Assembly: GCA_964392625.1 (NCBI GenBank)
Contig: CAYMQG010000080.1
Coordinates: forward strand, 13,335-77,334
Source: an uncultured Gammaproteobacteria bacterium
GTDB taxonomy: Bacteria; Pseudomonadota; Gammaproteobacteria; Steroidobacterales; Foliamicaceae
Length of the DNA stretch: 64,000 nt
Direction: 5' to 3'
Shown: positions 3,929 through 63,453 of the stretch, one piece after another
Layout of the letters: the number at the start of each line of letters is the position of its first letter
How positions within the stretch are numbered: position 1 is the first letter of the stretch
Program-made: the position numbers and the translations under genes
Notes under the pieces: generated by a model
Told to the model about the DNA's origin: nothing
The model's database searches: none
What the model saw: the letters and a program-made list of their open reading frames with translations, nothing else

Positions 3929-6950
<3,022 letters not shown>

Positions 6951-6964
6951 CTATCATTTTACAA

Positions 6965-9661: not shown

Positions 9662-9685
9662 GGCGCCGATCCTCCATGTCCGCCG

Positions 9686-12913: not shown

Positions 12914-12951
12914 GCGCTGCCTCCCGGCTGGGTTCGGGCCCCGGTTCGGAC

Positions 12952-13365: not shown

Positions 13366-13382
13366 CTCAACAAGTCTCCTGG

Positions 13383-13919
13383 TCAATTCTGCGTTACAAG
13401 TCGCTCCAGCAACAATTGTGCCTCGACATTAAGGGGGTCGAGCGCCAGTGCGCGCCGAAACCACTCCGCCGCGCTGTTGCTGTCCAGCGGCAGTTCGCAC
13501 ACGCCGCAGTTGGCGTAGACGGCCGCCCGGCGTATGCCCACGGCCTCCCGTGCGGCCCGTTCAAGCATCCTGAGGCCCTCGCGCGGCTTTCCGGCCCGGC
13601 GGCACTGGAAAACACCCAGGCTGTTGAGCGCCTCGACATCGCGTGGCGCCAAACGGACCGCGCGCCTGTAATGCCGCTCGGCCCGCTCCTGGTCCTCGAG
13701 GTGCTCGTAGGCCATGCCCAGGACGCGGTGGGCCTCCGATGAATCGGGATCCTGCTGAGTGGCCCGCACCAGCTTGTCGCGAGCCAGCTCCGGACGGCCC
13801 TGTGCCAGGTACGCCGCGCCCAGTTCCAGGTTCAATGCCGACGCGTCCGGACCGGCATTCAGGCCCGCCTGGCAGCCGACCGTCAGCAAGGCGGCGGCCA
13901 TGAACCACGGCAACCTCAT
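13383..13919 (-). CDS. pilW: Type IV pilus biogenesis/stability TPR lipoprotein PilW-like
   Basis: MRLPWFMAAALLTVGCQ lipobox followed by TPR repeats. ATGA overlap with the rlmN stop. The track ORF extends upstream, but that part overlaps rlmN. Confidence 0.7.
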   Translation of the reverse strand: MRLPWFMAAALLTVGCQAGLNAGPDASALNLELGAAYLAQGRPELARDKLVRATQQDPDSSEAHRVLGMAYEHLEDQERAERHYRRAVRLAPRDVEALNSLGVFQCRRAGKPREGLRMLERAAREAVGIRRAAVYANCGVCELPLDSNSAAEWFRRALALDPLNVEAQLLLERLVTQN

Positions 13920-48225: not shown

Positions 48226-49323
48226 TCAGGGCCAGTCGCGCGAAACGCTGACGAAGGACCCCCTGGACTGCGAGGCCATCAGCCAGTAGTAGCCGGTGGC
48301 GGCCGGATCCCCGTCCATCGGGTAGAACAGCACATTGACCGGAATCCCCGAGGGCAGATCGCGCACCGCGCGGGTAAAGAACCGTTCGCGCGCCCGCGTA
48401 TCCACCCATCCGACGCGCGAGGGAGGGCTGGCGCCCTGCGTCGGCAGTCCGTCGGTCAGCAGGTACACGTTGTCCGGCAACGGCTGCATCGCGCGTATCG
48501 CGCGCATCGCCGCATGCAGGCTGGTACCGCCCCTCGGCGCGAACTCGCGCAAGGCCTCGATCGCTTCGGTCACCCGCGCACCGTCGGCGACGCTGAGCCA
48601 CTCCCCGTCCGTGCCCTCAAGAATGCTCCTGTGTTCCACCCCGAAGATATAGACCTGAAAACGCTGCTGCGGCTCCAGGCGCGTGGTGATCCAGTCGACC
48701 GAATTCACGACCTGGACCCACTTCGGGGCGCGGGGTTTGAGTTCCTCTTCCATCAGGCGAAAGCGCAACACGTCGATATAGGTGCGCCCCAGCATGCTTG
48801 CGGACGCATCCACGAGGATCATTACCCGGTCGCCGCCCATCTGCATGCCGGTCAGGTATTGCCGCGCGCCCTCGCCCTCGAAACCGCGCACGCGCTGCCC
48901 CGCTCCTTCCTCCGCCTCGGCGACCCGCGCCTCAAGTTCCTGCTGCATTTCCCTGAGCCGGTCCACGTCGGCCCGCAGCTTCTCTACCGACTCCTGGCTC
49001 TGCGTCCCCAGGCGCTCGTATTCCGCCAGTTCGGCCAGCAACGCGGCAAGCCGTTCGCGCAGCTTTCTCAGCTCCTCGATGGCCGTTGCGCGGCGCTCGT
49101 CGAGCGTATCGCGCTCACCCCGCAACTGCAGCAGGTCCTTTCGCCCCTCCAGGACCTCCTCTTCGAGGCGCGTGGACTCGCTGAGCAGATCGATACGCTC
49201 GGCGTCCGCCCGCAAGCGCACCTGGGCGTTGATGATCACGAAGAACAGCACGACCGCGCCGAAGCCGCAGGAAATGATGTCCAGAAACGACATGCTGAAT
49301 ACGTGAAAGCGCCTACGAGCCAT
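48226..49323 (-). CDS. ExbD/TolR/MotB-like TM(Asp) - coiled coil - von Willebrand factor A (vWA) protein
   Basis: The N-terminus MARRRFHVFSMSFLDIISCGFGAVVLFFVI has a basic cytoplasmic tip and an Asp at the start of the single TM, as in ExbD, TolR and MotB. About 110-120 aa of heptad-rich charged helix follow. The vWA domain has an intact MIDAS (VMILVDASAS ... GGTSL ... VYLLTDG). The start overlaps the upstream gene by 11 nt. Confidence 0.75.
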   Translation of the reverse strand: MARRRFHVFSMSFLDIISCGFGAVVLFFVIINAQVRLRADAERIDLLSESTRLEEEVLEGRKDLLQLRGERDTLDERRATAIEELRKLRERLAALLAELAEYERLGTQSQESVEKLRADVDRLREMQQELEARVAEAEEGAGQRVRGFEGEGARQYLTGMQMGGDRVMILVDASASMLGRTYIDVLRFRLMEEELKPRAPKWVQVVNSVDWITTRLEPQQRFQVYIFGVEHRSILEGTDGEWLSVADGARVTEAIEALREFAPRGGTSLHAAMRAIRAMQPLPDNVYLLTDGLPTQGASPPSRVGWVDTRARERFFTRAVRDLPSGIPVNVLFYPMDGDPAATGYYWLMASQSRGSFVSVSRDWP

Positions 49324-50725
49324 CGCCGCCCACCTCGCGCGTGATCAGGAACTCCAGCGGCCCCACGCCCACCACGTCCCCCCCGCGCAATGGCGCCGAA
49401 TCCGCCACCGGCGCGCCATTCAGGTTGGTTCCGTAACGGCTGTGGTCATGCAAAACCGCCTGTCCATTCTCCAGCACCACGGTGCAGTGGTGTCGTGAAA
49501 TTCCACCTTCCGGCGAGAGCACGATCGACAGGCCCCCGGACTGCGGAGACGAGCCGAGATGCAGGCCTTCAGCGCCTATCCGCCAGGCCCGGCCGCCGAA
49601 CACGACGTGCGTCGGCGTCCGTTCTCCCCCTTCCCCGTCGCCGCCGGCAGGCGGCGCAACTCCATCCGGCCGGGAAATTCGCCCCGTGTCCGGCCCGCCG
49701 GGCAAGTCGAGGGCCGGCAAGGACGTAAGCAGCACATAGCGATCCCTCGCTCCCGACGCAGGACCGAAACGCTCCAGCGCGCCCAGCGCCGCGGCGCCCG
49801 CCGGCAGGACCTGGACCTCGGCGGCGAGCAGGCGAGCGAACACGTCGGCGCAGCCGGGAACCTCGGCGAGGACCCCCGACAGGTATATGTCCGCTGCCTC
49901 GGGGCCCGTGCACCACGATCGCATGCGATTCCCCGCCCCCCCCAACAGCCGCTCGACCGAGACAAGAAAGTCATCGCGGCTCAGGATCGCAGTGGCGGTT
50001 ACGGGCGCCGCTTCAAGTTGGGCCCTGAGCTCGCCGCCGGTCAGGACAGCCTGAAGCCATGAGTCCAATCGGTCGGCCAGTTCCTGTTCGGTGGCGGGCA
50101 GATCCAATGGATCAAAACGGGAACCCGCCACGAACCGGCCGGCAACGTAGCCGGTCATGGCCGCTCGGAGGTGACGCAGTCCCGGGCGGCCGTCGTACAG
50201 AATCTCCTCGCGCCGGATTCGGCCGTCGCGCGGCATGAGCCGGGAAACCGCCAAACGCTCGGGGGTAGCTTCAATGTGCAGGCAGGCGCGGCCCGCCGCC
50301 GCGCCCCGCACCGCGGCCACCCCGCTTTCGACCAGCCCGGCCACCGGCAGCCCGGCTTCCTCGGCGATGCCCAGCAGCAGTGCAAGGCGGTCTTCCGCAA
50401 CGCCCGGCGGAATGACCAGCACCACACCGCTTATGTCTCCCACGGATTGCCGAAAGCGCTCCCACAGCCCCTGCATTTGCCCGTGGGCCAGGTCGGCATA
50501 GCTGCGATATCCCCGCGCCGGCCTGGGCAGGGGCTCATCCGACAGCATTTCCCAGTAATTGCGGTAACTGCGCGCGGGGTCGCGCCGCGCCTCTTCGGCC
50601 GCTTCCCGTCCGAACGCCACCCGGCGCTTTTGCACCAGCGCCACGCCCGGCTCGTTGAACAGCACTCCGGCGGCGGTAGCGCCTACCAGCGCCGCTCCAT
50701 TGACTTCCAGCGCGACCAGCGCCAT
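49313..50725 (-). CDS. Hsp70/actin-fold (degenerate ATPase motifs) protein with C-terminal FHA domain
   Basis: The N-terminal roughly 340 aa align by eye to the DnaK NBD (VVLVIPPGVAEDRLALLLGIAEEAGLPVAGLVESGVAAV vs [37 protein letters not shown]), but the phosphate-1/2 motifs are lost. The C-terminal FHA reads GGISRHHCTVVLENGQAVLHDHSRYGTNLNGAPV...GDVVGVG. No signal peptide. Confidence 0.7.
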   Translation of the reverse strand: MALVALEVNGAALVGATAAGVLFNEPGVALVQKRRVAFGREAAEEARRDPARSYRNYWEMLSDEPLPRPARGYRSYADLAHGQMQGLWERFRQSVGDISGVVLVIPPGVAEDRLALLLGIAEEAGLPVAGLVESGVAAVRGAAAGRACLHIEATPERLAVSRLMPRDGRIRREEILYDGRPGLRHLRAAMTGYVAGRFVAGSRFDPLDLPATEQELADRLDSWLQAVLTGGELRAQLEAAPVTATAILSRDDFLVSVERLLGGAGNRMRSWCTGPEAADIYLSGVLAEVPGCADVFARLLAAEVQVLPAGAAALGALERFGPASGARDRYVLLTSLPALDLPGGPDTGRISRPDGVAPPAGGDGEGGERTPTHVVFGGRAWRIGAEGLHLGSSPQSGGLSIVLSPEGGISRHHCTVVLENGQAVLHDHSRYGTNLNGAPVADSAPLRGGDVVGVGPLEFLITREVGGDGS

Positions 50726-50741
50726 GCCGGCTCGCCGCGGC

Positions 50742-51539
50742 TCAGTCGCCCTGCAGGCGGCGGATCAGCCGTTCGTCGCAGTAATCCGAGGTCTCGAAGA
50801 CCAGTCGCTCCTGCAACAACTGAAGCTGGTGGACCAGGAACATGATGAAAATGCTGACCAGCAGGGCAAAGAAGGTGGAATTGAAGGCCACGCCGAGGCT
50901 CTCGGTAACGCCGCTGATGTCGCCTTCCACGGCCCGATAGGCAAGCGTCAGCGCCTGGCCGATCCCGCGCACGGTGCCGATAAAGCCGATCGAGGGGATC
51001 GCCCAGGCGATGTATCGGATCATCGACAGTTCGGATTCCAGTCGCTCGGCTTCGGCGTTGACCAGCGTCTGTGTAGCCGAAGAGACGTCCTGCACATTGC
51101 CCGTGGCGCCGAAGCGCTGCAGCGCGCTGAGCAATACGCGCGGCAACAGCAGGCGTTGCTGCGATTCGGGCAGCGCACGCAATTGGCGCGCGTGCTCGCG
51201 CGTGTCCTCGGGCAGTATGCGCACGCCTTCCGCCAACGGCAGCAGATCGCGCTGCAGCAGCGAGCGCTCGCGCAGCGCCCCACGCGCCTTGTAGCCCATG
51301 ATCGCCAGCGCCCAGAGCGCCAGGATCAGGCAGGCCTCCTGCTCGAAGTCGCGCACGATCACGTACAGCGAGCGTTCGGGCACGTACTCGGCGTCCTGTT
51401 CCAGCAGTATCCGCTGCTCTTCCATGACCGCGTTGGCCTGCGGTCGGATCCAGGCCACGTACATCGCATGCACCAGGATCACCGACAGGAACAGCGAAAA
51501 AAGCTGAAAAACGAATTCGACCGGTAACTGTCTTCTCAT
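50742..51539 (-). CDS. MotA/TolQ/ExbB proton-channel family protein
   Basis: 265 aa. Two N-terminal TMs, a cytoplasmic insert, then the family core IRYIAWAIPSIGFIGTVRGIGQAL ... GVAFNSTFFALLVSIFIMFLVHQL (conserved Pro-x-x-G-x-x-GT and the last TM). Confidence 0.8.
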   Translation of the reverse strand: MRRQLPVEFVFQLFSLFLSVILVHAMYVAWIRPQANAVMEEQRILLEQDAEYVPERSLYVIVRDFEQEACLILALWALAIMGYKARGALRERSLLQRDLLPLAEGVRILPEDTREHARQLRALPESQQRLLLPRVLLSALQRFGATGNVQDVSSATQTLVNAEAERLESELSMIRYIAWAIPSIGFIGTVRGIGQALTLAYRAVEGDISGVTESLGVAFNSTFFALLVSIFIMFLVHQLQLLQERLVFETSDYCDERLIRRLQGD

Positions 51540-51546
51540 CGATTGC

Positions 51547-52065
51547 TCACTGGTGTCGCGGGGGGCGGGGCGTCAGGACACGCCGAAGATATGCGCTGCC
51601 CTCGTCCCAGCCCTTCGTGTGCGGCGACTCGGGAAACTCCAGCTCGGCCACCGCGCAGGTAGGGAACTTTCCGTAGAGCACCGCGAAAGCCTCCTCTTCG
51701 CCTTGGCCGGCCAGGTACAGCGCCAGTTCCTGCAGGGCGGGATTATGGCCCACCACCATGATGTCGCCGGTGCCCTCCGGCAGTGCGTGCAGGCACTGCA
51801 GCACGGTTCCCGGACTGAAGGTGTACAGCCGTCGCATGACCTCGATGCTGAGGTCGGCGGGAAGGCTGGGCAGGACACCGCACAGCGTCTCCACCGCCCT
51901 GCGTCCGGCGGAACACAGGATTCTCTCGGGGGCGCATCCCACGGCCGCCAGTTTCTCTCCCATCGCGGGCGCATTCTTCCGGCCCCTGGGGGCCAGCGCC
52001 CGGTCGAAATCGTCGGCGGAATACGGCCCCGCCTTGGCATGACGCAACAGCCACAGGCGCTTCAT
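51547..52065 (-). CDS. sixA: SixA-type histidine-phosphatase-superfamily protein
   Basis: MKRLWLLRHAKA (RHG/RHA catalytic motif) ... MVVGHNPAL. 172 aa from the ATG at 52065. The stop lies only 7 nt before the MotA-like start. The 1026-aa track ORF containing it is otherwise antisense to ppk. Confidence 0.8.
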   Translation of the reverse strand: MKRLWLLRHAKAGPYSADDFDRALAPRGRKNAPAMGEKLAAVGCAPERILCSAGRRAVETLCGVLPSLPADLSIEVMRRLYTFSPGTVLQCLHALPEGTGDIMVVGHNPALQELALYLAGQGEEEAFAVLYGKFPTCAVAELEFPESPHTKGWDEGSAYLRRVLTPRPPRHQ

Positions 52066-52167
52066 GACGGAACGAGGGGGGCGCGCCCTCCTCTCCAGGA
52101 ATTGCTCATAACTCCTGTATGCTACTCCGATCATGGGGCACATTCCACGCCATCCCGGAACACGCAA

Positions 52168-54375
52168 ATGACGCCCGCGTCCGCCAAGCCGCGAGCGTTG
52201 AGCGAGGTGGAACGCGTCGCCGGCCGCCTGATCAACCGCGAGCTGTCCTGGCTGGAATTCAACACGCGGGTGCTGGAGGAAGCCGGCAACGAAAACCACC
52301 CGCTGCTGGAGCGCGTGCGGTTTCTGTCCATCTCCGCCAGCAACCTCGACGAGTTCTACATGGTGCGCGCGGCCGGGCTCATGGCCCAGGTGGCGGCAGG
52401 CGTCACAAAGACCAGTGCCGACGGGCTGACCCCCGGCGAACAGCTCGAAGCCATACGCGAACAGGTAAAGAGGCTTCTCAAGGCCCAGTCCGGGCGCAGC
52501 GCGCAGTTGCTGGCCGAATGCCGCGAGGCCGGGGTGGCGGTGGTAAAGCCCGAGGAACTGGGCAAGCAGGCCCGTGAGTGGCTGTCGCGATGGTTCGAGA
52601 ACCAGTTGTTTCCGGTGCTGACTCCCCAGGCGGTCGATACGGCGCACCCCTTCCCCTTCATTCAGACCGGCTGCCTGGTGTACGTGCTGCGGCTGATGCG
52701 GCCCGCGGACAAGCACGAGATCAACGGCCTGGTCCTTGTCCCCCCGCAGATCGAGCGGTTCGTGCGTGTTCCCGGCAAGGCCCTGCGCTTCGTCGCCGTC
52801 GAGGAAATCATCGCCCGCAACTTCAGGCTGCTGTTCCCCGGAATGAAGATCCTGGGCCACGGCATCTTCCGCATCAGCCGCGACAGCGACCTTGAAATCG
52901 ACGAAGAAGCCGAGGACCTGGTACGGACCTTCGAGACCGCCCTGCTGCGGCGCCGCAGAGGCAACGTCATACGGGTGGAAGTGGCGGCCGGCATGCCGAA
53001 GAACTTCCGCCGGTTCGTTCTCAAGGCGTTCAACGCCTCGCACGCGCATGTCTTCAACATCGACGGCATGCTGGGGCTGGCGGACATCAAGCAGATCATC
53101 ACGGACCAGCGCCGCGACCTGCAGCACGAGCCGCTCAACGTGCGCTTCCCCGAACGGGTACGCGAGTATGGAGGCGACATTCTCGCCGCCATACGCGCCA
53201 AGGACTTCGTCGTGCAGCATCCGTACGAGAGCTTCGACGTGGTCGTGCAGTTCCTGCGCCGCGCCACCGACGACCCGGCGGTCGTGGCCATCAAGCAGAC
53301 CCTTTACCGCACTTCCGAGGACTCGCCGATCGTCGAGGCGCTGATCGCCGCCGCCGAGGCCGGCAAGCTGGTCACCGCCATGGTCGAGCTTCGGGCGCGT
53401 TTCGACGAAGCGGCGAACATCCGCTGGGCGCAGGAGATGGAGCGCGCCGGCGTGCAGGTCGTCTACGGCTTCATGGAACTCAAGACCCACGCCAAGGTAT
53501 CGCTGGTGGTGCGCAGGGAAGCGGGCGAATTGCGGACCTATACGCACTTCGGCACCGGCAACTACCATCCGGTCAACGCGCGCGTCTATTCGGACCTGAG
53601 CTTCTTTACCTGCGACGCGGCCCTGGGGCGCGACACCGCGCGCCTGTTCAATTACATGACAGGCTACGCGACGCCCGAGGACATGGAAAAGCTGGTTTAC
53701 GCGCCGGCTCAGATGAAAAGCAGCCTGGTCGAGTTGATCGAGGAGGAAGTCGTCCATGCCCGCGCCGGGCGTCCGGCGGAGATCTGGGCCAAGCTCAACT
53801 CGCTCGTGGACCCCGAGATCATCGACTGTCTCTACCGGGCGAGCCAGGCCGGGGTGCGGATCGAACTCTACGTCCGGGGGATTTGCTGCCTGCGCCCGGG
53901 CGTACCCGGCATGTCTGAGAACATCCAGGTGCGCAGCATGGTCGGCAGGTTCCTGGAGCACTCGCGCGTCATGTGTTTCGGCGCCGGCCACCAGCTTCCT
54001 TCCACAGAGAGCAAGGTTTACGTATCGTCCGCCGACTGGATGCCCCGCAACCTGCATCATCGCGTGGAGACACTGGTGCCGATCGAGAACGAGACGGTCA
54101 AGCGGCAGCTCGTGGAGCAGGTCCTGATGGCGAACCGCTTCGACGTGATGCAGAGCTGGCAACTCGGACCCGACGGCGCTTACCGCCGCCTTGACCATCA
54201 ATCGGGCGATTTCAGCGCCCACACCTGGTTCATGACCAATCCGAGCCTTTCCGGCCGCGGCAGCGCCCTGCGGGAGTCGCGTCCGGCCATGCCCGGCGAA
54301 CTGTTTCCCGAGACCGGGGGGCCCACCGCCGCGGAAGACGAACCCCGCCCGACACTGGTCAAAGCCGCCGTCTGA
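52168..54375 (+). CDS. ppk: Polyphosphate kinase 1
   Basis: INRELSWLEFNTRVLEEA...PLLERVRFLSISASNLDEFYMVR, the autophosphorylated-His region ELKTHAKVSLVVRRE, and two PLD-like HKD-type C-terminal domains. ATG at 52168. The upstream 205 codons of the track ORF are rejected. Confidence 0.95.
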   Translation: MTPASAKPRALSEVERVAGRLINRELSWLEFNTRVLEEAGNENHPLLERVRFLSISASNLDEFYMVRAAGLMAQVAAGVTKTSADGLTPGEQLEAIREQVKRLLKAQSGRSAQLLAECREAGVAVVKPEELGKQAREWLSRWFENQLFPVLTPQAVDTAHPFPFIQTGCLVYVLRLMRPADKHEINGLVLVPPQIERFVRVPGKALRFVAVEEIIARNFRLLFPGMKILGHGIFRISRDSDLEIDEEAEDLVRTFETALLRRRRGNVIRVEVAAGMPKNFRRFVLKAFNASHAHVFNIDGMLGLADIKQIITDQRRDLQHEPLNVRFPERVREYGGDILAAIRAKDFVVQHPYESFDVVVQFLRRATDDPAVVAIKQTLYRTSEDSPIVEALIAAAEAGKLVTAMVELRARFDEAANIRWAQEMERAGVQVVYGFMELKTHAKVSLVVRREAGELRTYTHFGTGNYHPVNARVYSDLSFFTCDAALGRDTARLFNYMTGYATPEDMEKLVYAPAQMKSSLVELIEEEVVHARAGRPAEIWAKLNSLVDPEIIDCLYRASQAGVRIELYVRGICCLRPGVPGMSENIQVRSMVGRFLEHSRVMCFGAGHQLPSTESKVYVSSADWMPRNLHHRVETLVPIENETVKRQLVEQVLMANRFDVMQSWQLGPDGAYRRLDHQSGDFSAHTWFMTNPSLSGRGSALRESRPAMPGELFPETGGPTAAEDEPRPTLVKAAV

Positions 54376-54381
54376 CAGCCA

Positions 54382-55875: not shown

Positions 55876-55887
55876 CGGTACGGCGCG

Positions 55888-56259
55888 CTAAATATCGGTT
55901 GGCCACACTACCGGGTTGTCGGCCGACAGGGGCTCCGAAGGCGTGAACTCCTCCAGCACCTCATCGCTGCCCAGCGCCTCCTCGATGCGGGCCAGGTCTT
56001 CCTCGATCGAGGTCACCTCCGTGGACAGCTCTTCCTCCACGGGAGATCCGTCTTCTCCCCGGGCCGGCGCATCGGCCGGAGTTGCATTGGAGGGCGGGAT
56101 GCTCTCCCGCCCAGCGGGCACGCCCTCGTTGTCGGGCGCCGCGTCCTCTGCGGTCCTGTCCTGCTGCGCGAGCCCCAGCCATCCGCCCACACGTTCGGCG
56201 GCCCAGGTCAGGCCAACGGCCAGGCCGATAACGGCGACAACTGCGACGACCTTCTTCAT
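55888..56259 (-). CDS. Small N-terminally anchored/secreted acidic protein (hypothetical)
   Basis: MKKVVAVVAVIGLAVGLTWAA followed by a Pro/Asp/Glu-rich tail (…EEELSTEVTSIEEDLARIEEALGSDEVLEEF…). The ATG at 56259 forms an ATGA overlap with the stop of the FGE-domain gene. Confidence 0.6.
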   Translation of the reverse strand: MKKVVAVVAVIGLAVGLTWAAERVGGWLGLAQQDRTAEDAAPDNEGVPAGRESIPPSNATPADAPARGEDGSPVEEELSTEVTSIEEDLARIEEALGSDEVLEEFTPSEPLSADNPVVWPTDI

Positions 56260-58676
56260 TCGGGTTCCTGCAACTCGGCGTAGCGCGCCAGGCGAAATCC
56301 TACATCGAGCCTCTCCTCCTCGCCAAAATCGCGGAACGCCCAGCGCAGTTCGCGCAGCGTCCCGTGCAGCCAGCCCGAACCGCGGATCACGTAAAAACGC
56401 CCCTCCTGCGGACCGCGCGGGTCCACCTCGAAGCCGGGATAAAGCGTATCGGTGCCGTAGTAATCGCCCGTCCACTCGGCCACGTTGCCGCCAAGATCGT
56501 AGAAGCCCAGCGGGTTGGCCGGAAACGAACCGACCGGGGCCGTGAAGGGAAAGAAGTCGTTGTAGGCGCTCAGCACGTTGGTGACGAGGCTGCCGGCCGA
56601 CTGGTCCGCGTAGTTGCCGGAGCGTGCCGGAGGAGGCATGCGCTCACCCCAGGGATAGCGCGAATTCCCCGCGCCGCCCCGGTAGCGGGCCGCCCAGACC
56701 CACTCCGCCTCGGTCGGCAGGCGATAGCCGGTCCCCGGCTCGGTCACCGGAATCAGCCGGCCGGAACGGCTCTGATACTGAAGCGGCAGGTTTTCCTGCG
56801 AACTCAGCCAGTTGCAGAAGGCCGCGGCGGCCTGCCAATCGACGTTCACCGCGGGGCTGCTGTCGGCCGCCAACGAACGGAAGCGCTCGGCCCCGGAGGT
56901 GTGGTTGGGAATGAAAGCGCGAAATTCCCGGTTGGTGACTTCCTTGACGCCCAGGTAGTAGCGTTTCGTGAGCCTCACCCTGCGGCGCACCTCGTTGTTG
57001 CGCCATCCCTGCGAACCGCGCTGCGATCCCATCTCGAACTCGCCGGGGAACAGCATGACCATTGACGCTCCCTGCGACGTTTCGATTTCCGTGGGCTGGG
57101 CGGCCAGCATCTGCTGCCGCGGCGTCAGGAGTTCCACTTCCACCTCCTGCGGATAGGCGGGCTGCGGAACGACCTCGCGCGACTGCGCCACGTAGCCTTC
57201 CAGGCTGAATTCGAGCTGTTGCTCGGTTGAAGGCAATTGAAGGTCCAGCGGGGTCCGACCGGCTGGCTGTCCGTTGACGCTGACCTGCGCTCCGGACGGA
57301 CGGCTCAACAGGCGAATGGTACCCAGACGCGGCTCGAGACGAATGGTCAGGGACTGCTCGGCGCCCCGACCCAGCGTCACCGTGCGTTCCTGCGACTCGT
57401 AGCCCGCCCGGGCCACCACCACGCGGTGCGCCCGGTCCGGGCTCACCTCCACGGTCGCAGGCGATCCTCCGCGAAAGTCCCCGTCCACGGTAATGCTGGC
57501 GCCCGGCGGGTCCGTCCGCACGCGAAGCACGCCTGCGGCAGGTTGCAGGCGGATGACGGGCAGGACCTGCGGCGAGCCGGCAACCACGGTCAGCCGTTCG
57601 CGATGCGTGGCGAATCCCGGCCTGGAGAACGACAGCATGCGTTCGCCGGACAGCAATTCCACGGTTGCCGGAGTTGTTCCCAGGACCTGTCCTTCCGATC
57701 GCAATTCAGCCCCCGGCGGATCGCTGCTGGCGAGGACCTCCGCCCAGTCCGGCTCCAGTTCGGCTCTGAACGGCTCCAGGTCGCCGCCGCCCTCCACGGC
57801 CAGCGCAATGCTCAGGTCCTTGTAGCGGAGCGCGCTTACGCTCAGGGCGTAAGTGCCCGGGCTCAGCGAGATTTCCTCGCCGGGGGAAAACACCTGGTCC
57901 ACGCCCTCGATACGAATCTCCGCGCCGGCCACGGCATCCACGACCACCCGTCCGGGCAAAAGCCGCATCGCGAAGCGAAATTCCTGACTGCCTTCGCCCC
58001 CCACCTCGATCTCTTCGTCCAGCGGGTAATAACGTTCCCGTTCAGCCCTGACCCGGTACCGGCCTTTCCAGAGAAGATAGCGGGACCCCACGTGCGGAGT
58101 GGGCAGCAGCGCGTCAACCTCAACGGCAACGTCGGCGGGCTCCACTTCAATCAGCACGCCTTCCGCGGTAAACACGAAGACGGCGCTGACGCCCAGCAGC
58201 GCCAGCAGCACGCCTGCCGCCAGGCGCAACCACAGGCGGCCCTTGTGCGCCGGCACGGAGCGCGAATCTCCGGCAGGCCGGCGAACCGCTATTTCGGCCG
58301 TGGCGTCTTCGTCGTCGGCCAGTTCGGGCGGCCTCGTGTCCCAGGCCTGCGCCAGGTAGCTCACATTCAGGCGCATAGCTTCGGGCGAAAGCGAGTCCAC
58401 CGTTACCTCCGCTCCGGCAATGGCGAGCCGATCGCCTTCCTCCAGCCACTGTGCGCCGCTGATCGGCTCGCCGTTCAGCAGAAGGCCGGAAATGCCCGGA
58501 TAGCACTGCACCAGGGCCCGGTCGTCGAGGAGATTGATGCTGGCCGCCGGAGGCGCGCCGGCCGGGCCGGGGAGGCGAATATGCGCGCCCGCGCCGCTGC
58601 CCAGCAGCACGGGCAGCTTGTCCGCCGCGAGCGTGCGCTCGCCCTCGGGCAGCACGAGAACCACATCACGCGCCAT
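56256..58676 (-). CDS. FHA-like N-terminal domain - TM - multiple PEGA domains - C-terminal FGE/SUMF1 (formylglycine-generating-enzyme-like) domain protein
   Basis: 806 aa. The N-terminal roughly 100 aa are beta-rich and FHA-like (LLNGEPISGAQWLEEGDRLAIAGAEVTV), but the canonical SRxH is not evident. TM is LWLRLAAGVLLALLGVSAVFVF. Repeated PEGA-type units are present (e.g. LRVRTDPPGASITVDGDFRGGSPATVEV). The C-terminus carries FGE-sulfatase motifs (YRLPTEAEWVWAAR, GNVAEWTGDYY, RGSGW). Confidence 0.8.
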   Translation of the reverse strand: MARDVVLVLPEGERTLAADKLPVLLGSGAGAHIRLPGPAGAPPAASINLLDDRALVQCYPGISGLLLNGEPISGAQWLEEGDRLAIAGAEVTVDSLSPEAMRLNVSYLAQAWDTRPPELADDEDATAEIAVRRPAGDSRSVPAHKGRLWLRLAAGVLLALLGVSAVFVFTAEGVLIEVEPADVAVEVDALLPTPHVGSRYLLWKGRYRVRAERERYYPLDEEIEVGGEGSQEFRFAMRLLPGRVVVDAVAGAEIRIEGVDQVFSPGEEISLSPGTYALSVSALRYKDLSIALAVEGGGDLEPFRAELEPDWAEVLASSDPPGAELRSEGQVLGTTPATVELLSGERMLSFSRPGFATHRERLTVVAGSPQVLPVIRLQPAAGVLRVRTDPPGASITVDGDFRGGSPATVEVSPDRAHRVVVARAGYESQERTVTLGRGAEQSLTIRLEPRLGTIRLLSRPSGAQVSVNGQPAGRTPLDLQLPSTEQQLEFSLEGYVAQSREVVPQPAYPQEVEVELLTPRQQMLAAQPTEIETSQGASMVMLFPGEFEMGSQRGSQGWRNNEVRRRVRLTKRYYLGVKEVTNREFRAFIPNHTSGAERFRSLAADSSPAVNVDWQAAAAFCNWLSSQENLPLQYQSRSGRLIPVTEPGTGYRLPTEAEWVWAARYRGGAGNSRYPWGERMPPPARSGNYADQSAGSLVTNVLSAYNDFFPFTAPVGSFPANPLGFYDLGGNVAEWTGDYYGTDTLYPGFEVDPRGPQEGRFYVIRGSGWLHGTLRELRWAFRDFGEEERLDVGFRLARYAELQEPE

Positions 58677-58693
58677 GTTTCACGCCCCCCGCG

Positions 58694-61006
58694 TCAGATG
58701 GGATCCGTGCAGACCAGAACCAACGGCTCCGGCAGTCCTTCCGGCTCCACGACGAACTCGCGGCGCACGTCACGAAAGCCGTCACGGGTCCCGACGGCGG
58801 TGTAGGCGCCGGGGCGTAGCTCAAGCATGCGACTGTCGAAACTTCCCAGGCGGCCAACGTGAAAAATGGTCACTTCGGTGAGACCGTCGGAACGCAGCCA
58901 CACCGGCGCCGGCGTGGCTGCCACCGCCAGGGCCTGCTCGAGGCGGCCGATCTGCCCGTTAAGGCGCGCGCCCGGACCGGGAATGGCCGCGGCTTCGTCC
59001 AGCAGCCGTTTGCCGCGCTGCCAGGCATCGTCCCGGTTCAACGTCCGGGCGTTCGCGATGGTGGTTTCCAATGCATCGTCCAGCCGCGCACGCCCCTCGG
59101 CCTCCGCCAGCCCGCGTTGCGCTGCGACGATGTTCGAGTCGATCTCAAGCATGCCGCGGTAATTGGCGGCCGCCCTGGGCCAGTCTTCCGCGAACCTGCC
59201 CGCCATCGCGGCCGCCTGGAACTGCGCCAGCCGCTGCCCGCGTTCCTCCAGTTCCAGCGCGGCAAGCGCTTCGACCGGCCCGGGATCGTTCGGACGCTGT
59301 TTCCGTGCGGCCTCGAACGCAGTCCGGGCCGCTTCGACATCGCCCTCTCCCAGCGCCGCATGACCGCGCGACATTCGCGAGTTGAACAGTTGCTGATCGA
59401 TCCGGGCATTGACCGTCGACAACTCCCTGCGGGCGGACTGCCGTTCCGGGTCGACCTTGAGCACCGCCTGCCAGGCGGCCCGCTGCTCCTCCAGGCTGCC
59501 TTCCCGCGCGCTGGCCCGCGCTTCGGCCACGGCCTGCATGGTTTCCGGCAGCCGGGCGGCCCGGCGGGACGCGGACTGCACCTCCGGATCGCTCGCTCCG
59601 AGAAGAATGCCGGCCTTTTCGAGTTCCGCCAGAGCACCGGCCTGATCGCCCGATTCGATAGCCTGCAGGGCTTCTTCCAGGGCCCCGCGGCCAATATCGG
59701 GAGCCTCTTCCCGCAGTTGGCGCAGCATCTCCGCCGCCTTTCCGTATGCGCCCTGCGCGTCCGGATATTCGCGCCTGCGATAGAAATCGTCCCCTTTCCG
59801 CTCCTCGGCCATGGCCTGCTCCCAGGCCCCGCCCGACCACATGGAGGGCTGCAGGGCCGCCAGGTAATTTCGGTCCTGCAGCATATCGCCCATGGCCTCA
59901 TCGGCCGCCTCGCGCTGCATTCTCAGCAGCTGCATGTCCTGGCGGGGCGCCTCGGCCTCCTGGATGATGCGTTCGGGCGGAGGACGCCTGCTTGCGCGTT
60001 CTTCCGCGAAGCGCGGCGCCGCGAAAAACAGGACCGCGGCCGCCGCCAGCAGGAGTCCGCCCAATGCATAAGCCACCCACAGCGGCACGCCGGAACTGCG
60101 TTGCAACGCCGGCGGCGCACCGCCGGGGTCGCCGGCGCCGGCTCGAGCTCGCGCGACAATGGCGGCGGCCTGTGACGGGCCTTCGGCGGTGGCGGATTCT
60201 GCCAGTATCTCTTCCAGGGCTGCACGCACGGCCGCCATGGTCACCGGCCTCAGGGCTTCGTCCCGCGCGAGCATCGCGGTAACCAGTTCGGCCAGCTCAT
60301 CGGGAAGCTGCGGCCGCCCTTCGGGGGCGGCGGGAGCTGCCAGCTCCGTGCTGCGAATGGCCTCTTCGCTGATGTCCGGCGCGAATGGCGGATAGCCGCA
60401 CAACAACTCGTAGATGACGCAACCCAGCCCATACACGTCGTCGCTGGTCCGGGCGGAGCGGCCCTCAAGCCGTTGCGGGCTCATATAGGCCAGCGAGCCT
60501 CCGGGACGCCGGACACGCCCGTCGTCGGCATCCGGCAGCACTGCGGCGCCGAAGTCCGTCAGGCAGGCGGCGCCCGACTCGTCCAGCAAAATGTTCTGCG
60601 GCTTGATGTCGCCATGCACCACGCCTTTGCGGTGCGCGTACGCCAGGGCGTCGCAAACCGGCAGCAGGCGCCTCGCGGCGTCGTTCCAGGGTTCGCCGGA
60701 CCGCTCTCCTACATGACCGCCCGGCAGGACGGGCATGGTGAAGAAATGGCTGTTGCCGTCGGAAACGAACTCCTCCGGGCGCACGACGGCCGGATGGACC
60801 AGCGACTGGGCAACGGAGAACTCGCGCCGGAAGCGGTCGATACGCGCCGGATGCCGGGCATATTCATCCGCCAGCAACTTCAGGGCCACTTCACGGCCTT
60901 CCCGCATATCTTCCGCAAGCCACACCTCGCCCAGCCCGCCGGAGCCCAGCGGGCGGACCAGGCGGAACCGATCCGCCAGCATCTCGCCTTGCCTTTTTTG
61001 GGTCAT
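58694..61006 (-). CDS. Transmembrane Hanks-type Ser/Thr protein kinase with periplasmic TPR-like region and C-terminal PEGA-like domain
   Basis: Gly-loop LGSGGLGEVW, VALK lysine, catalytic HGDIKPQNILL, DFG, and activation segment ...YMSPQRL. TM is LWVAYALGGLLLAAAAVLFFAAP. A long helical-repeat ectodomain follows. The C-terminus is EVTIFHVGRLGSFDSRMLELRPGAYTAVGTRDGFRDV. Confidence 0.88.
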   Translation of the reverse strand: MTQKRQGEMLADRFRLVRPLGSGGLGEVWLAEDMREGREVALKLLADEYARHPARIDRFRREFSVAQSLVHPAVVRPEEFVSDGNSHFFTMPVLPGGHVGERSGEPWNDAARRLLPVCDALAYAHRKGVVHGDIKPQNILLDESGAACLTDFGAAVLPDADDGRVRRPGGSLAYMSPQRLEGRSARTSDDVYGLGCVIYELLCGYPPFAPDISEEAIRSTELAAPAAPEGRPQLPDELAELVTAMLARDEALRPVTMAAVRAALEEILAESATAEGPSQAAAIVARARAGAGDPGGAPPALQRSSGVPLWVAYALGGLLLAAAAVLFFAAPRFAEERASRRPPPERIIQEAEAPRQDMQLLRMQREAADEAMGDMLQDRNYLAALQPSMWSGGAWEQAMAEERKGDDFYRRREYPDAQGAYGKAAEMLRQLREEAPDIGRGALEEALQAIESGDQAGALAELEKAGILLGASDPEVQSASRRAARLPETMQAVAEARASAREGSLEEQRAAWQAVLKVDPERQSARRELSTVNARIDQQLFNSRMSRGHAALGEGDVEAARTAFEAARKQRPNDPGPVEALAALELEERGQRLAQFQAAAMAGRFAEDWPRAAANYRGMLEIDSNIVAAQRGLAEAEGRARLDDALETTIANARTLNRDDAWQRGKRLLDEAAAIPGPGARLNGQIGRLEQALAVAATPAPVWLRSDGLTEVTIFHVGRLGSFDSRMLELRPGAYTAVGTRDGFRDVRREFVVEPEGLPEPLVLVCTDPI

Positions 61007-61084
61007 TCAGTCGCCTGGCACGGGCGTGCTTGCCGTGCTTCCGGCTTCAAATGATACGGGCGGGACGCTGCTCCCGCTTCCGTT

Positions 61085-62314
61085 TCAGGGGCGCGACAGG
61101 GACGTGCCCTCAGGCTCTTGCGCACCCGGCGTTTCAAGGTCGCCGGTCTCGCGGGCGTAGATGTCCCGCAACAGGCGGCGCCATTCACGAAACCTCTCCT
61201 CGGCGGATCCGGTCAAACGGCGGGTCTGACCTTCGAGCTCCACCACCATGGGCTCGGCCTCGGCATCGAAGGATTCGCCCACTTCGCGCAGCGCCTCGGC
61301 GTGCATCCTGGCTTCCTCGCGCCGCCCCAGGCTTCCCTGAATTCCCATGAAGCCCCCCTGGATCATGGTGCCTGTCACGCCCATGTTGTCGCCGCCGCTG
61401 GCTTCGTACGCGACAGCGCCCAGAATCCCGAGGACTCCGAGCAGCATGCGCGTATTCGCCGACCTGCGCATTTCCTCGTAACTCAGGCGGCCTTCCCGGG
61501 CCATCCGCCGCCAGTCGGTGTAGGGCCGGTCCAGCCCGTAGTAGAGGTTGGCGTAATGCTCGTTGACGGCGTCTATCAACGCGTATTCCCGCTCCCGCAC
61601 CTCGCGCATGCGGGCGACCATGGGATCGTCGGCAGCCGGCAGGCGCCTGACCTCGTACTGCCCGTCGCCGGTCTCTTCCAGATAGCCGCTGAAAGCCTGC
61701 GGCACGAGGCTCTGCCCGTAGCGCAGGTCGCTGATCTCGCGCACGCGCTGCAAATCGCCGGGACTGAACTGCGCGCGCGCCTGCAGCAGGTCGTTGGCGA
61801 TCTGGTTATAGATGTTCTGGTAGGGATCCTGACCGGGGCCGGTGTTGCGAATGTATGCCTGCTCCGCAACCAGCATTTCATAGTTCTTTTCGAACCACTG
61901 GCGGCCGGACGAGTCCCAGGCGCCGACACGCAGCTGCGCGCTATAGCCGTCCGATTGGTTGATCCTGCCCGAAATCACGACATCCGCAACCGGACTGTAT
62001 TCGGGAAGGACGCTTACCGCTCCCCAATAGCCGGTAGTCTCAAGCGTGCTCTTGAGGTGGTACGGCATGTAGCGCGCTTCGGCGCGGCGAATCTCGGGAA
62101 AGATGAAGCGGTCGTTGAGTTCCTGATCGCTCGCCTCTTCGGGCAGCCCCGCATCAAACACCAGGATGCCGACGTTCAGCAGCGATTCCGATGCAATTTC
62201 GGTCTCCGCGCGCTGCAGCCCCACCTGGGTGTACTGGACCTCGCGCGCGGACGTGCAGGCGCCCAGCACAATGATGCAGGCGGCCAGACCGAGAGTCGTG
62301 ATCGACCGGTTCAT
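61085..62314 (-). CDS. Lipoprotein of unknown function with a C-proximal glycine-zipper segment
   Basis: The ATG at 62314 gives MNRSITTLGLAACIIVLGACTS (lipobox). The later segment LLGVLGILGAVAYEASGGDNMGVTGTMIQGGFMGIQG resembles glycine-zipper membrane hairpins. ATGA overlap with the upstream gene's stop. Confidence 0.65.
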   Translation of the reverse strand: MNRSITTLGLAACIIVLGACTSAREVQYTQVGLQRAETEIASESLLNVGILVFDAGLPEEASDQELNDRFIFPEIRRAEARYMPYHLKSTLETTGYWGAVSVLPEYSPVADVVISGRINQSDGYSAQLRVGAWDSSGRQWFEKNYEMLVAEQAYIRNTGPGQDPYQNIYNQIANDLLQARAQFSPGDLQRVREISDLRYGQSLVPQAFSGYLEETGDGQYEVRRLPAADDPMVARMREVREREYALIDAVNEHYANLYYGLDRPYTDWRRMAREGRLSYEEMRRSANTRMLLGVLGILGAVAYEASGGDNMGVTGTMIQGGFMGIQGSLGRREEARMHAEALREVGESFDAEAEPMVVELEGQTRRLTGSAEERFREWRRLLRDIYARETGDLETPGAQEPEGTSLSRP

Positions 62315-63453
62315 TTTGTTTTCAACCCCATGTGCTTGCGATATTCGTCCCACAATGCCTCGCGTATGCGGGGGTCTTCTTCCTGCTCCGCCGCTTCGCG
62401 AATCTGCCGCGCCACCTGGTCCTCCTTGCCGGTAACCTCCGCAATATCTTCCGGAATCTCGATCTTCGTCTCCGGCTGCTCGCCGGGCGAGCCGTCTTCC
62501 GTCGGCCCGCCTTCTCCTTCGCCTCCGCCGGAGCCGCCACCGCTTCCGGAACTGCTTCCGCCTGCGCTGCTGCCGTCCGATTCGCTGCCCGGGCTTTGGC
62601 CGTCACCGCCAAGACCCCCGCCGCTCGCGTTGGGGATAGTCACCATAGCCCCGCCGGAGCCGCCGGACTCGCCGATCATTCCGCCCGTGCCTCCGGAACC
62701 GGCGGCGGACCCCTGTCCGGCCGATGCCATGGCGCCACGCTCACGGGCAATTTCGCGGTCGTAACCCTCCATGGATTCACGCAGGATTCCCTCGAGGTCG
62801 CCACTGCCTTGTGTGCCGCCTGCACCTCCTCTGCCGCCGGGCTCGCTACCCTGCCCGCCTCCGAAGCCACCGCCGACTCCCGTGGAACCGGCCTGCTGAC
62901 CTCCGGAACCGCCCGGCCGGCCCGAAGGCCCGCCCGCCGAACCGCTGGCGCCTCCCATGGAACCCATGGAACCCTGGGCGCCGCCCTGCGATCCCATCGA
63001 GCCCATCGAACCTCGCGAACCGCCTGGTGTTCCCATGGAGCCACCCATGGAGCCCATCGAACCGCCGGCTGAACCCATCGAACCCCGCGATCCACCGGTT
63101 GAACCCATCGAGCCCATGGAACCGCCGGACGAGCCCATTGAGCCCCCCATCGAACCGCGAGAACCGCCGGAAGAGCCCATCGAACCGCCCATGGAGCCAC
63201 GCGAGCCCCCGGAGGAACCCATGGACCCTTGCGAACCGCCCATGGAACCCTGAGAACCGCCCATGGAGCCCTGCGAACCGCCCATGGAGCCCTGCGAGCC
63301 CCCGGAGGACCCCGAACTGCCGCTGGGCGAAGGCATCGAAACCGGGGGGCCGCCGGACGGCGAGGAAACGCCTCCGGTGGTCTGGCAATTCGCCAGAACC
63401 AGCACTGCGGAGAGCGCCATACAAAAGCCTGAAATACGCACTGTTGCTTTCAT
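62311..63453 (-). CDS. Lipoprotein with extreme Gly/Ser/Met-rich tandem repeats and a conserved-looking charged C-terminus
   Basis: The ATG at 63453 gives MKATVRISGFCMALSAVLVLANCQ (lipobox). Roughly 125 aa of (G-S-M-G / GGSQ / GGSR) repeats follow, then a second Gly/Ser/Asp-rich tract. The C-terminus is EDIAEVTGKEDQVARQIREAAEQEEDPRIREALWDEYRKHMG. Confidence 0.65.
   Translation of the reverse strand: MKATVRISGFCMALSAVLVLANCQTTGGVSSPSGGPPVSMPSPSGSSGSSGGSQGSMGGSQGSMGGSQGSMGGSQGSMGSSGGSRGSMGGSMGSSGGSRGSMGGSMGSSGGSMGSMGSTGGSRGSMGSAGGSMGSMGGSMGTPGGSRGSMGSMGSQGGAQGSMGSMGGASGSAGGPSGRPGGSGGQQAGSTGVGGGFGGGQGSEPGGRGGAGGTQGSGDLEGILRESMEGYDREIARERGAMASAGQGSAAGSGGTGGMIGESGGSGGAMVTIPNASGGGLGGDGQSPGSESDGSSAGGSSSGSGGGSGGGEGEGGPTEDGSPGEQPETKIEIPEDIAEVTGKEDQVARQIREAAEQEEDPRIREALWDEYRKHMGLKTK
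62947..63327. repeat. Imperfect in-frame tandem repeat (9-nt periodicity, higher-order 18-33 nt units) encoding the GSM-rich tract
   Basis: The plus strand shows reiterated cat(g/c)ga(a/g)cc(n) units, e.g. catggaacccatggaaccctgggcgccgccctgcgatcccatcgagcccatcgaacctcgcgaaccgcc... This generates spurious ORFs in several frames on both strands (62724..63485, 62846..63424, 62957..63253). Confidence 0.85.

Follow-up and report, generated by a model that had tools for sequence, protein, structure and literature searches.

We analysed a stretch of DNA of 64,000 nucleotides (the window) from an uncultured Gammaproteobacteria bacterium of the family Foliamicaceae (GenBank assembly GCA_964392625.1, contig CAYMQG010000080.1, forward-strand positions 13,335 to 77,334). 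In the window two groups of minus-strand genes, separated by the plus-strand genes ppk1 and ppx, are strongly supported as the two halves of a single system. The upstream group encodes two lipoproteins, a Hanks-type kinase, a PEGA/FGE protein and a small secreted protein; the downstream group encodes a SixA-like protein, a MotA/TolQ-like channel protein, a protein that joins an Hsp70 fold to a forkhead-associated (FHA) domain, and a vWA protein. With a confidence slightly above even, we favor the interpretation that these proteins form one trans-envelope system in which a proton-driven motor of the 5:2 type would move a vWA rotor under the control of kinase/FHA gating.

Results

Evidence that the two gene groups form one system

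The association between the two groups was followed in loci outside the window's clade whose contigs allow the test. In these loci the PEGA/FGE gene stands upstream in collinear order in 60/60, and the MotA-like and vWA genes are direct neighbors in 69 of 70 and in all 69, respectively. The genes lie on the same strand in the order Gly/Ser-rich lipoprotein (when present), lipoprotein, kinase, PEGA/FGE protein, small protein, MotA-like protein, FHA protein and vWA protein, usually followed by a paralogous vWA protein and then by a lipoprotein or an OmpA-family protein. A reverse scan of metagenomes starting from the PEGA/FGE protein found motor genes downstream in 34 of the 36 in-family matches with enough downstream sequence, against 0/28 for unrelated FGE-domain control proteins. 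The same gene order recurs in more than 100 loci, an arrangement far beyond chance. A preliminary description of the region had proposed that the two operons belong to one functional system and had named, as a check, their adjacency when ppk and ppx are elsewhere; the halves are indeed contiguous and collinear where ppk and ppx are absent, in both directions of search, and the proposal is upheld.

The opposing view is that two unrelated operons have become neighbors by chance, and it could appeal to the 3.8 kb of opposite-strand genes between them and to presumably separate promoters. It is refuted by the collinearity in more than 100 other loci, by the association seen in both directions, and by the co-variation of domains across the two halves described below, and we regard it as extremely improbable.

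Among roughly 186,000 species genomes, 306 have a homolog of the 470-residue Hsp70-fold/FHA protein. The hosts are Foliamicus-like Gammaproteobacteria, Woeseiaceae, Steroidobacteraceae (cultured strains included), one metagenome-assembled genome (MAG) of the Chromatiaceae and one MAG of the Polyangiaceae. At E <= 1e-30, a profile search counted some 1,270 sequence clusters, grouped at 50% identity. Divergence of the gene cluster is roughly in step with that of its hosts (Woeseiaceae, Steroidobacteraceae and the Foliamicus-like clade), and its flanks are stable in related genomes.

An insertion divides the cluster in the window's clade

In the window's clade (L004-L013) sixA and ppk lie beside the motA-like gene in 10/10 genomes and ppx does so in nine. 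The ppk-ppx pair stands between the two halves in eight of these genomes; two genomes have the kinase half 31 kb and 290 kb away, with both halves retained, which also counts as evidence for one system. Outside the clade, sixA is found in none of the 73 loci, nor do any of these 73 have ppk, ppx or sixA within 10 kb. These three genes therefore represent a lineage-specific insertion and not an ancestral part of the system, and the insertion of sixA-ppk-ppx split one ancestral operon into two in this lineage. Through the insertion the motor half also acquired a new upstream region: in this clade only, its operon begins with sixA, which lies 7 bp from the motA-like gene. The SixA-like protein contains the RHA and GHN motifs and scores 51.7 bits against a curated cut-off of 74.5.

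The preliminary description had considered that the polyphosphate genes may be meaningful members of the system, and for an ancestral role this suggestion is not supported, on the count of 0/73. A version limited to function would hold that ppk, ppx and sixA are working parts of a stress system, with SixA acting, for example, on the phospho-histidine of PPK1 or on the kinase pathway. The joining of sixA to the motor operon, the position of ppk-ppx between the halves in eight clade genomes, and a cluster that otherwise has no phosphatase would all fit. The loci outside the clade speak against it, as do the two clade genomes in which the kinase half is remote from ppk and the SixA score below the family cut-off, and we consider it highly improbable.

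A MotA-like channel protein and a vWA protein resemble a motor pair

The MotA-like protein is a member of PF01618 (54.8 bits against a cut-off of 22.9), while the NCBIfam equivalog models give 27.2 bits against 221 for tolQ and 18.8 against 135 for exbB2. As judged from these profile scores, it is a divergent subfamily and not TolQ or ExbB. Two pore-type threonines, T189 (in GTVRGI) and T222 (in NST), are invariant, with Ser or Thr at these positions in 100% of 82 + 7 homologs; from our own reading of the motifs, we take them to correspond to T148 and T181 of ExbB. The protein is 46-75% identical across families and, by analogy, is a putative pentameric stator.

The vWA gene lies one gene downstream of the motA-like gene. 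Its product begins with MARRRFHVFSMSFLDIISCGFGAVVLFF, a single transmembrane helix of the ExbD/TolR type (predicted at residues 13-31, helix motif FSMSFLD) with an Asp at position 15. The protein thus combines the traits of a stator partner, namely a single N-terminal transmembrane helix with a conserved Asp, encoded near a channel gene. Asp15 and the residues of the metal-ion-dependent adhesion site (MIDAS; D172-x-S174-x-S176 and T290-D291) are invariant in 30/30 homologs, and by motif the locus-derived homologs retain the Asp15 helix in 74 of 79 cases and the MIDAS in 78 of 79. The AlphaFold2 (AF2) model has an unbroken helix from residue 21 to 138 and a vWA domain with a predicted local distance difference test (pLDDT) score of about 90, and a Foldseek search with this model returned vWA domains (E 3e-7). 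In Pfam the vWA family scores 25 bits, short of its threshold of 27. A periplasmic location is predicted for the vWA domain, whose MIDAS is intact.

The ExbD and OmpA profiles of Pfam and NCBIfam found no match in the vWA protein, whose C-terminal domain is vWA, and profiles from the same two collections found no ExbD, TolR or MotB gene in the cluster. Thus the vWA protein may act like a stator partner, though it is not a member of the ExbD/TolR/MotB family. Only one vWA gene was found in the 64 kb of the window; tandem paralogous copies are present in the relatives L001, L058, L086, L091, L111 and L121.

Variants of gene order around the channel gene were also seen. No MotA-like gene stands before the Hsp70-fold/FHA gene at L002 (9691-11362), L106 (9639-11409) and L111 (12336-14129), nor, by tblastn only, at L109 and L125; the gene immediately in front of it is that for the small protein or, at L111, the one that comes next to the PEGA/FGE gene.

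A tblastn search of 72,556 plasmids with the vWA protein gave no match. The MotA-like query gave four weak matches, on plasmids of Rhizobium, Anabaena, Bacteroides and Microcystis, of which only the Rhizobium match was called the same MotA subfamily. The Anabaena match was rejected as a member, as it is a different protein of 466 residues that matches the channel core only. This MotA/TolQ/ExbB-family protein is of a defence-island type; its gene (L089, Anabaena cylindrica pANACY.03, 8539-9939) has a type III-B CRISPR-Cas module on one side and a viperin gene on the other.

The kinase and the FHA protein co-vary

Several cytosolic elements are gained and lost together: the kinase domain, the N-terminal FHA-like domain of the PEGA/FGE protein with the T-x-P-P motif that follows it, and the S-R-x-H signature of the FHA domain in the Hsp70-fold protein. 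In seven kinase-less metagenomic clusters (L091, L097, L102, L104, L107, L114 and L121) the kinase homolog consists of a transmembrane helix and a periplasmic part only. T-x-P-P is absent from 7/7 of these clusters and the FHA-like domain from 6/7; the Hsp70-fold/FHA gene is absent in three, and S-R-x-H is lost in the other four. The signature is kept in 6/6 kinase-containing metagenomic clusters. This co-variation at the level of domains ties the kinase in one half of the cluster to the FHA protein in the other, and it supports, indirectly, the kinase-FHA link that the preliminary description had proposed.

At least three of the kinase-less hosts have a lower G+C content (L091 40%, L114 48% and L121 43%). 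Loci L019, L029, L046, L079 and L083 were rejected as kinase-less, since segments of the kinase are present in another frame, and these are likely assembly frameshifts.

The T-x-P-P motif is present in 66/66 homologs of the genome set, about 15 residues past the FHA-like domain, in a linker that is otherwise variable. Judging from the co-variation, T114 is the likeliest candidate for the phosphosite, and it is a candidate FHA docking site. Other Ser or Thr residues conserved only with the kinase were sought in the MotA-like and vWA proteins, where nothing convincing was found.

The FHA domain of the Hsp70-fold protein matches PF00498 with 38.1 bits against a cut-off of 20.7 (E 2e-9), and S410-R411-x-H413 and N436 are invariant in 83/83 homologs. 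The TagH FHA model gives 27.8 bits, against a cut-off of 120. For the Hsp70-fold domain the AF2 model has a pLDDT of 85, and Foldseek matched it to the nucleotide-binding domains of DnaK/Hsp70 proteins with E 1e-14 and a template-modelling score of about 0.7.

The PEGA/FGE protein consists of the FHA-like domain, a transmembrane helix at residues 152-170, three PEGA/beta-sandwich stretches and an FGE-fold domain at 537-798; its N-terminal domain is cytosolic and it has no lipobox. The FHA-like domain, as a profile of 63 homologs, matched the FHA profile of the 470-residue family with an hhalign probability of 96% and E 4.4e-9, while Pfam at an E of 0.1 gave no FHA match at this N-terminus. The phosphothreonine-binding residues GR and SxxH are missing in all 66 homologs, which indicates an FHA-like fold and not a reader. 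On this point the preliminary description, which counted two phosphothreonine readers, is not borne out; this domain is more likely a docking scaffold or a substrate.

Both catalytic cysteines of human FGE are without counterpart in the FGE-fold domain ('MCH...SYC' becomes GSGWL-HGTLRELRW), and on this alignment the domain, which is C-type-lectin-like in fold, is predicted to be non-catalytic. Its nearest NCBIfam model is GldK/PorK (7e-30, 104.6 bits against a cut-off of 350), and PorK is among the PDB matches; no gldL, gldM or gldN neighbors were found in any locus. The PEGA domain is regarded as peptidoglycan-associated in a 2020 paper on conflict systems.

The kinase has a cytosolic catalytic domain (15-260), a transmembrane helix (311-329), a periplasmic helical region with weak TPR character, and a C-terminal beta-sandwich. 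The motifs VALK, HGDIKPQN and DFG are present, and the catalytic loop and the DFG Asp are conserved. Fusions of kinase, PEGA and FGE parts in one polypeptide exist elsewhere. One such Hanks kinase-PEGA-FGE-fold fusion, of 880 residues (L087, 3182-5824), adjoins the gene for a sigma factor of the extracytoplasmic function type, with no motor genes nearby; it indicates that these parts can work together as a single sensor.

Lipoproteins and small proteins

The Gly/Ser-rich lipoprotein contains a long low-complexity region of the GSMGG type and a conserved C-terminal helix (ARQIREAA...WDEYRKH). Its C-terminal residues, about 45 in number, recur directly upstream of the next lipoprotein gene in many loci. 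Within the gene, 62700-63350 (-) is an imperfect run of GSMGG, GGSQGSM and GGSRGSM repeats, and the homologs range from 189 to 708 residues (L085, L086) with only the lipobox and the last 45 or so residues kept. The 409-residue lipoprotein gave no Pfam, NCBIfam or PDB-sequence match, even with a profile of 25 members; its gene is collinear upstream of the kinase gene in every locus that reaches that far. No Pfam or NCBIfam match was found for the Gly/Ser-rich lipoprotein, the small protein, or the extra genes of relatives.

The small secreted protein ends in a conserved motif, F-x-P-[ST]-E-...-[FW]-P-x-[DN]-I-COOH, which in the window reads EEFTPSEPLSADNPVVWPTDI. The motif was found in 51 of 58 open reading frames (ORFs) located between the FGE and MotA-like genes, and the remaining seven are ORF mis-calls. 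At L086 (17664-18521) the cluster ends with an OmpA-family, peptidoglycan-binding protein in place of the usual terminal lipoprotein, which is consistent with an envelope-associated role. Additionally, an ORF of 64 residues upstream of the lipoprotein genes, which contains YGHYPPAVRSGRLNYDEY, has counterparts of 60-70% identity at the same position in L084 (4704-4892) and L085 (4813-5001) and is absent from loci outside the clade; it may be a clade-specific first gene of the upstream operon.

Gene layout and genomic setting

The features of the cluster are listed in Table 1. All of the elements that the preliminary description had listed for 48226-63453 were recovered there from the sequence and from profile matches, with a correction to one label: the product of 55888-56259, which had been called a lipoprotein, has a signal peptide ending TWA-AE and no lipobox. 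Junctions within the groups are tight, with an 11-bp overlap, an ATGA overlap, gaps of 0-17 bp and a single gap of 78 bp, consistent with two operons in this window.

Table 1. Coordinates, strands and defining features of the gene cluster and the inserted genes in the window.
Feature	Position	Strand	Description or best match
Bitopic vWA protein, 365 aa	48226-49323	-	ExbD/TolR-like helix, helix of about 118 residues, vWA domain
Cytosolic Hsp70-fold/FHA protein, 470 aa	49313-50725	-	Hsp70/actin fold 1-335, disordered linker, FHA 372-465
MotA/TolQ/ExbB-family protein, 265 aa	50742-51539	-	PF01618, E 1e-14
SixA-like gene, histidine-phosphatase superfamily	51547-52065	-	TIGR00249, 8e-14
ppk1	52168-54375	+	NCBIfam PPK1, 1121 bits
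ppx	54382-55875	+	Exopolyphosphatase, 287 bits
Small secreted acidic protein	55888-56259	-	Signal peptide; ATG overlaps preceding stop (ATGA)
Bitopic PEGA/FGE protein, 806 aa	56256-58676	-	PEGA 2.3e-39; FGE-sulfatase 5e-43 (148 bits)
T-x-P-P motif (T114-R-P-P)	58326-58337	-	Cytosolic linker between FHA-like domain and transmembrane helix
Degenerate FHA-like domain, residues 12-94	58395-58643	-	hhalign against FHA of the 470-aa protein
Membrane Hanks-type Ser/Thr kinase	58694-61006	-	Pkinase 6.6e-40 (PF00069, 137.6 bits)
Lipoprotein, 409 aa	61085-62314	-	Lipobox LGAC; without a match in Pfam
Gly/Ser-rich lipoprotein	62311-63453	-	Lipobox LANC; no family match
Single-transmembrane ORF, 64 aa	63533-63727	-	79 bp upstream of the Gly/Ser-rich lipoprotein gene

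A consensus scan of 51400-56400 for promoters and terminators found no promoter-like site and one terminator-like match, below the expectation from shuffled sequence; in a genome with a G+C content of 66%, the scan is uninformative. Long spurious ORFs, typical of DNA of high G+C content, run over the real genes. The minus-strand ORF 51547-54627 (1026 residues) is antisense to ppk and its last 172 codons are sixA, while the plus-strand ORF 51553-54375 extends ppk by 205 codons upstream of the likely start at 52168. An ORF of 155 residues at 51573-52040 was rejected as a gene, as it is a spurious wrong-frame ORF over sixA.

The window is a chromosome segment of this same G+C content and is rich in housekeeping genes, including guaBA, der, bamB, hisS, rlmN, an iscS-like gene, suhB, secDF, tgt, rpsA, aroA, serA/serC and gyrA. 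Genes unrelated to the system are found at the far end of the window, where 289-3406 (-) encodes an ABC-2 transporter, its ATPase and an HlyD-family protein, and where a deaminase with a best Pfam match to MafB19-like proteins lies beside guaA (3452-3928, -); the latter is probably an ordinary tRNA or cytidine deaminase. At the opposite end the window cuts short a divergent gene with its start at 63837 (+).

This setting bears on whether the cluster is an anti-phage or conflict system, with a Zorya-like sensor of the MotAB type coupled to Ser/Thr kinase, FHA and vWA modules. Motor-based defence of the Zorya type and conflict systems with kinase, FHA and vWA components exist, the kinase domain matches defence-kinase models generically, and a different MotA-like gene lies in the CRISPR/viperin island of the Anabaena plasmid. 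PADLOC, with ZorA and ZorB included, gave no match for the MotA-like, FHA, FGE and lipoprotein genes, and for the vWA protein gave only weak matches of the coiled-coil type (E 8e-4 to 7e-3). Apart from the kinase domain the components are thus null, and matches that are generic only indicate no known defence system. Furthermore, the cluster has no nuclease, protease, TIR or other effector, its neighborhood is one of housekeeping genes, its divergence is host-paced with stable flanks, and no phage or plasmid copies were found. Defence is in our view very unlikely. The housekeeping context, the vertical-looking divergence and the lack of effectors together favor an envelope function over defence.

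Discussion

In the mechanism that we propose, the MotA-like channel would enclose two Asp15 helices, contributed by a vWA-protein dimer, in a 5:2 arrangement suggested by analogy with ExbBD, TolQR and MotAB. Going by the features of this family, proton flow would turn or pull the vWA-protein dimer, whose helical stalk of about 17 nm would cross the periplasm and place the MIDAS vWA adhesion domain in the outer region of that compartment. As ligands of this head, the lipoproteins of the outer membrane and the acidic C-terminal end of the small secreted protein are candidates. Two more inner-membrane proteins, the kinase and the PEGA/FGE protein, would span the periplasm as probable sensors or anchors for a layer of the envelope, the latter with a non-catalytic, lectin-like head on a beta-sandwich stalk. 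As the co-variation suggests, the kinase would phosphorylate T114, the Thr of T-x-P-P beside the FHA-like domain; the resulting phosphothreonine would be the site on which the Hsp70-fold protein docks with its FHA domain. Docking would recruit or release the cytosolic Hsp70-fold platform at the motor and in this way gate it. The physiological output is probably envelope maintenance or surface interaction.

The stronger claim is that the cluster represents an undescribed class of trans-envelope machine, in which the kinase/FHA switch gates a 5:2 motor directly through T-x-P-P and the rotor is a coiled-coil/vWA arm. To this we assign a confidence somewhat short of even.

Several observations weigh against the proposed mechanism and should be considered together. 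For the motor, the trans-pore helix of the vWA protein has a low pLDDT (32-42) in the AF2 monomer. No adjacent motA-like gene is present in L002, L106 and L111 from gene calls and ORFs, nor in L109 and L125 from tblastn only; in such clusters the vWA protein may use another channel or act without one. For the switch, the canonical Arg after G391 of the FHA domain is replaced by Ser, Trp, Leu or Cys in nearly all members, and T-x-P-P could be a structural linker motif and not a phosphosite. The kinase-less variants indicate that phosphorylation is dispensable for the membrane and periplasmic core, and a phosphatase gene is absent from most clusters. The DxGTT and DxGGGT loops of the Hsp70-fold domain read, by inspection, LEVNGAAL and HIEATPER; with the glycine-rich phosphate loops replaced, the protein is probably no normal ATPase, and ATP hydrolysis by this domain is doubtful. 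Finally, the cluster encodes no substrate, outer-membrane barrel or effector.

Alternatively, the cluster could serve envelope-stress signaling only: the kinase, the FGE/PEGA protein and the lipoproteins would detect damage to the envelope, in the manner of TagQ, TagR and PpkA in type VI secretion, with the motor pair as a proton-gated sensor or anchor and the real output elsewhere in the genome. Such a system would share its vocabulary of lipoprotein, COG1262/FGE-fold protein, Hanks kinase and FHA protein with the threonine-phosphorylation pathway of the T6SS (type VI secretion system), and would agree with the lack of a substrate or effector gene and with the existence of MotA-less variants. 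However, a proton pathway that works is indicated by the invariance of the pore threonines and the helix Asp, kinase-less variants included. Kinase-less clusters keep the core, so that signaling cannot be its sole purpose, and no T6SS or other output genes lie nearby. We therefore think signaling alone unlikely and retain the gated motor as the preferred interpretation.

Flagella, TonB uptake, Tol-Pal maintenance of the envelope, gliding, type IX secretion and Zorya defence all run on proton-driven 5:2 motors. Each new partner of such a motor has so far revealed a new route of energy transfer to the outer membrane. We know of no 5:2 motor with reported control by a Hanks kinase and FHA protein, and if the stronger claim above is true, the system described here would be the first case of phospho-regulation in the MotAB/ExbBD/TolQR motor family. 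Abundant sediment and soil Gammaproteobacteria (Woeseiaceae, Steroidobacteraceae and Foliamicus-like bacteria) have the cluster as a core gene set; it is conserved on the chromosome in the Woeseiaceae, which are among the most abundant bacteria of marine sediments. Cultured Steroidobacter strains carry the system, so it can be studied. Our comparison singles out Asp15, the MIDAS site, Thr114, the S-R-x-H pocket of the FHA domain and F-P-x-D-I of the small protein as points to test, and the natural kinase-less and MotA-less variants provide built-in controls.

Comparison with known systems

The preliminary description had set the motor pair apart as the component it did not recognize. A computational precedent exists, so the pair is not without parallel: TolQ-like genes paired with vWA proteins that bear a TolR-like trans-pore helix with a conserved Asp have been described bioinformatically (PMC12204202, Mol Biol Evol 2025), where the vWA pairs are mostly paralogous and a role as force transducer was proposed. 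The pair in the window has the defining features of that description (a vWA C-terminus, an Asp helix and an adjacent TolQ-like gene), a match of features and not of sequences. In both cases a TolQ-like gene lies beside the gene for a membrane-tethered Asp-helix vWA protein with no tolR or exbD nearby, in Proteobacteria hosts. In contrast, the window has a single vWA gene and not a tandem paralogous pair, and the published description makes no mention of a kinase, FHA, FGE/PEGA or lipoproteins.

The likeness to ExbB-ExbD-TonB, TolQ-TolR-TolA and MotA-MotB is found in the PF01618 channel, the pore threonines, and a partner with an N-terminal Asp helix and a periplasmic C-terminal domain. The partner here differs, as it consists of a coiled coil and a MIDAS vWA domain and not of an ExbD/TolR or OmpA-like domain, and TonB and TolA are missing. 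Control of a motor by phosphorylation is also seen in the archaellum, with ArnA (FHA), ArnB (vWA) and the ArnC kinase. The ArnAB structure is among the Foldseek fold matches of the vWA domain. However, the Arn proteins are archaeal and wholly cytosolic, their vWA and FHA proteins bind each other, and control is transcriptional or at the level of assembly.

The T6SS pathway (TagQRST-PpkA-Fha1-PppA) similarly has a membrane Hanks kinase activated from the periplasm, an outer-membrane lipoprotein and the COG1262 protein TagR, which we take to have the FGE fold from that label and from the nature of this COG. PpkA carries a periplasmic vWA domain, whereas here the vWA domain is on the motor partner and not on the kinase, and the controlled machine is a channel of the MotA type. 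No T6SS, PP2C or TagST genes were found in the window or in any related locus. In Agrobacterium an FHA protein docks on a phosphothreonine of the membrane component TssL (PMC3953482). The T6SS pathway is thus a precedent for the set of lipoprotein, FGE-fold protein, membrane kinase and FHA protein.

The Agl-Glt system of Myxococcus combines a motor of the TolQ/TolR type with GltG, an inner-membrane protein with one or more cytosolic FHA domains, one transmembrane helix and a long periplasmic arm, and it includes the vWA protein CglB. GltG is thus a precedent for an FHA-transmembrane-periplasmic-arm protein bound to a TolQ-like pentamer. Unlike the PEGA/FGE protein, GltG has a TonB-like domain at its end, and TolR-like subunits are separate components of the Agl motor; the Glt outer-membrane proteins are missing here, and no kinase has been described as integral to Agl-Glt. 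This likeness raises the question of whether the cluster encodes an apparatus for surface motility, adhesion or secretion, like Agl-Glt or the GldLM/GldK machinery of type IX secretion, with the vWA domain as adhesin or coupler and the FGE-fold protein as a ring element like GldK/PorK. It would be in keeping with GldK/PorK as the best named relatives of the FGE-fold domain, with the layout of GltG on a TolQ-like motor and CglB as its vWA adhesin, and with the suggestion of gliding for vWA transducers (PMC12204202). The GldK score is well below its cut-off, however, and the FGE-fold protein has an inner-membrane anchor and is no lipoprotein. Genes for an outer-membrane barrel, a secretin, GldL/M/N, Glt proteins or cargo are missing from every locus. 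We consider such an apparatus quite unlikely and continue to favor the kinase/FHA-gated motor.

The Rhizobium leguminosarum plasmid pRlBT01d (L088, 155552-172052) has a MotA-like protein of the same subfamily (34% identity, E 2e-28) with an adjacent coiled-coil protein of 245 residues that shares the Asp-bearing helix motif of the vWA protein (here EIFSMSVLD), together with a membrane Hanks kinase and a canonical FHA protein. The differences are a helix protein with a beta C-terminus that is not vWA, a kinase with a PDZ domain, two PP2C genes, and no FGE/PEGA protein or Hsp70 fold. The locus looks like a distant cousin of the system, and a kinase and FHA protein beside the same MotA subfamily lend independent support to the phospho-switch. 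The ORFs at 1465-14718 of this locus are unannotated; one strand encodes a PP2C protein, the FHA protein and the kinase (1180 residues, with a transmembrane helix, a coiled coil and the PDZ domain), and the other a PP2C protein, the MotA-like protein, the helix protein, a secreted protein of 180 residues and a Gly/Ser/Asp-rich protein of 1610 residues.

The 2020 paper on conflict systems mentions neither MotA nor TolQ, and our literature search found no description of kinase/FHA, FGE/PEGA or lipoprotein partners with a motor of this kind. Taken together, these comparisons suggest that what is new here is a control module of kinase, FHA and FGE proteins that appears to be coupled to a TolQ-like and vWA motor, the pairing within the motor itself being already known.

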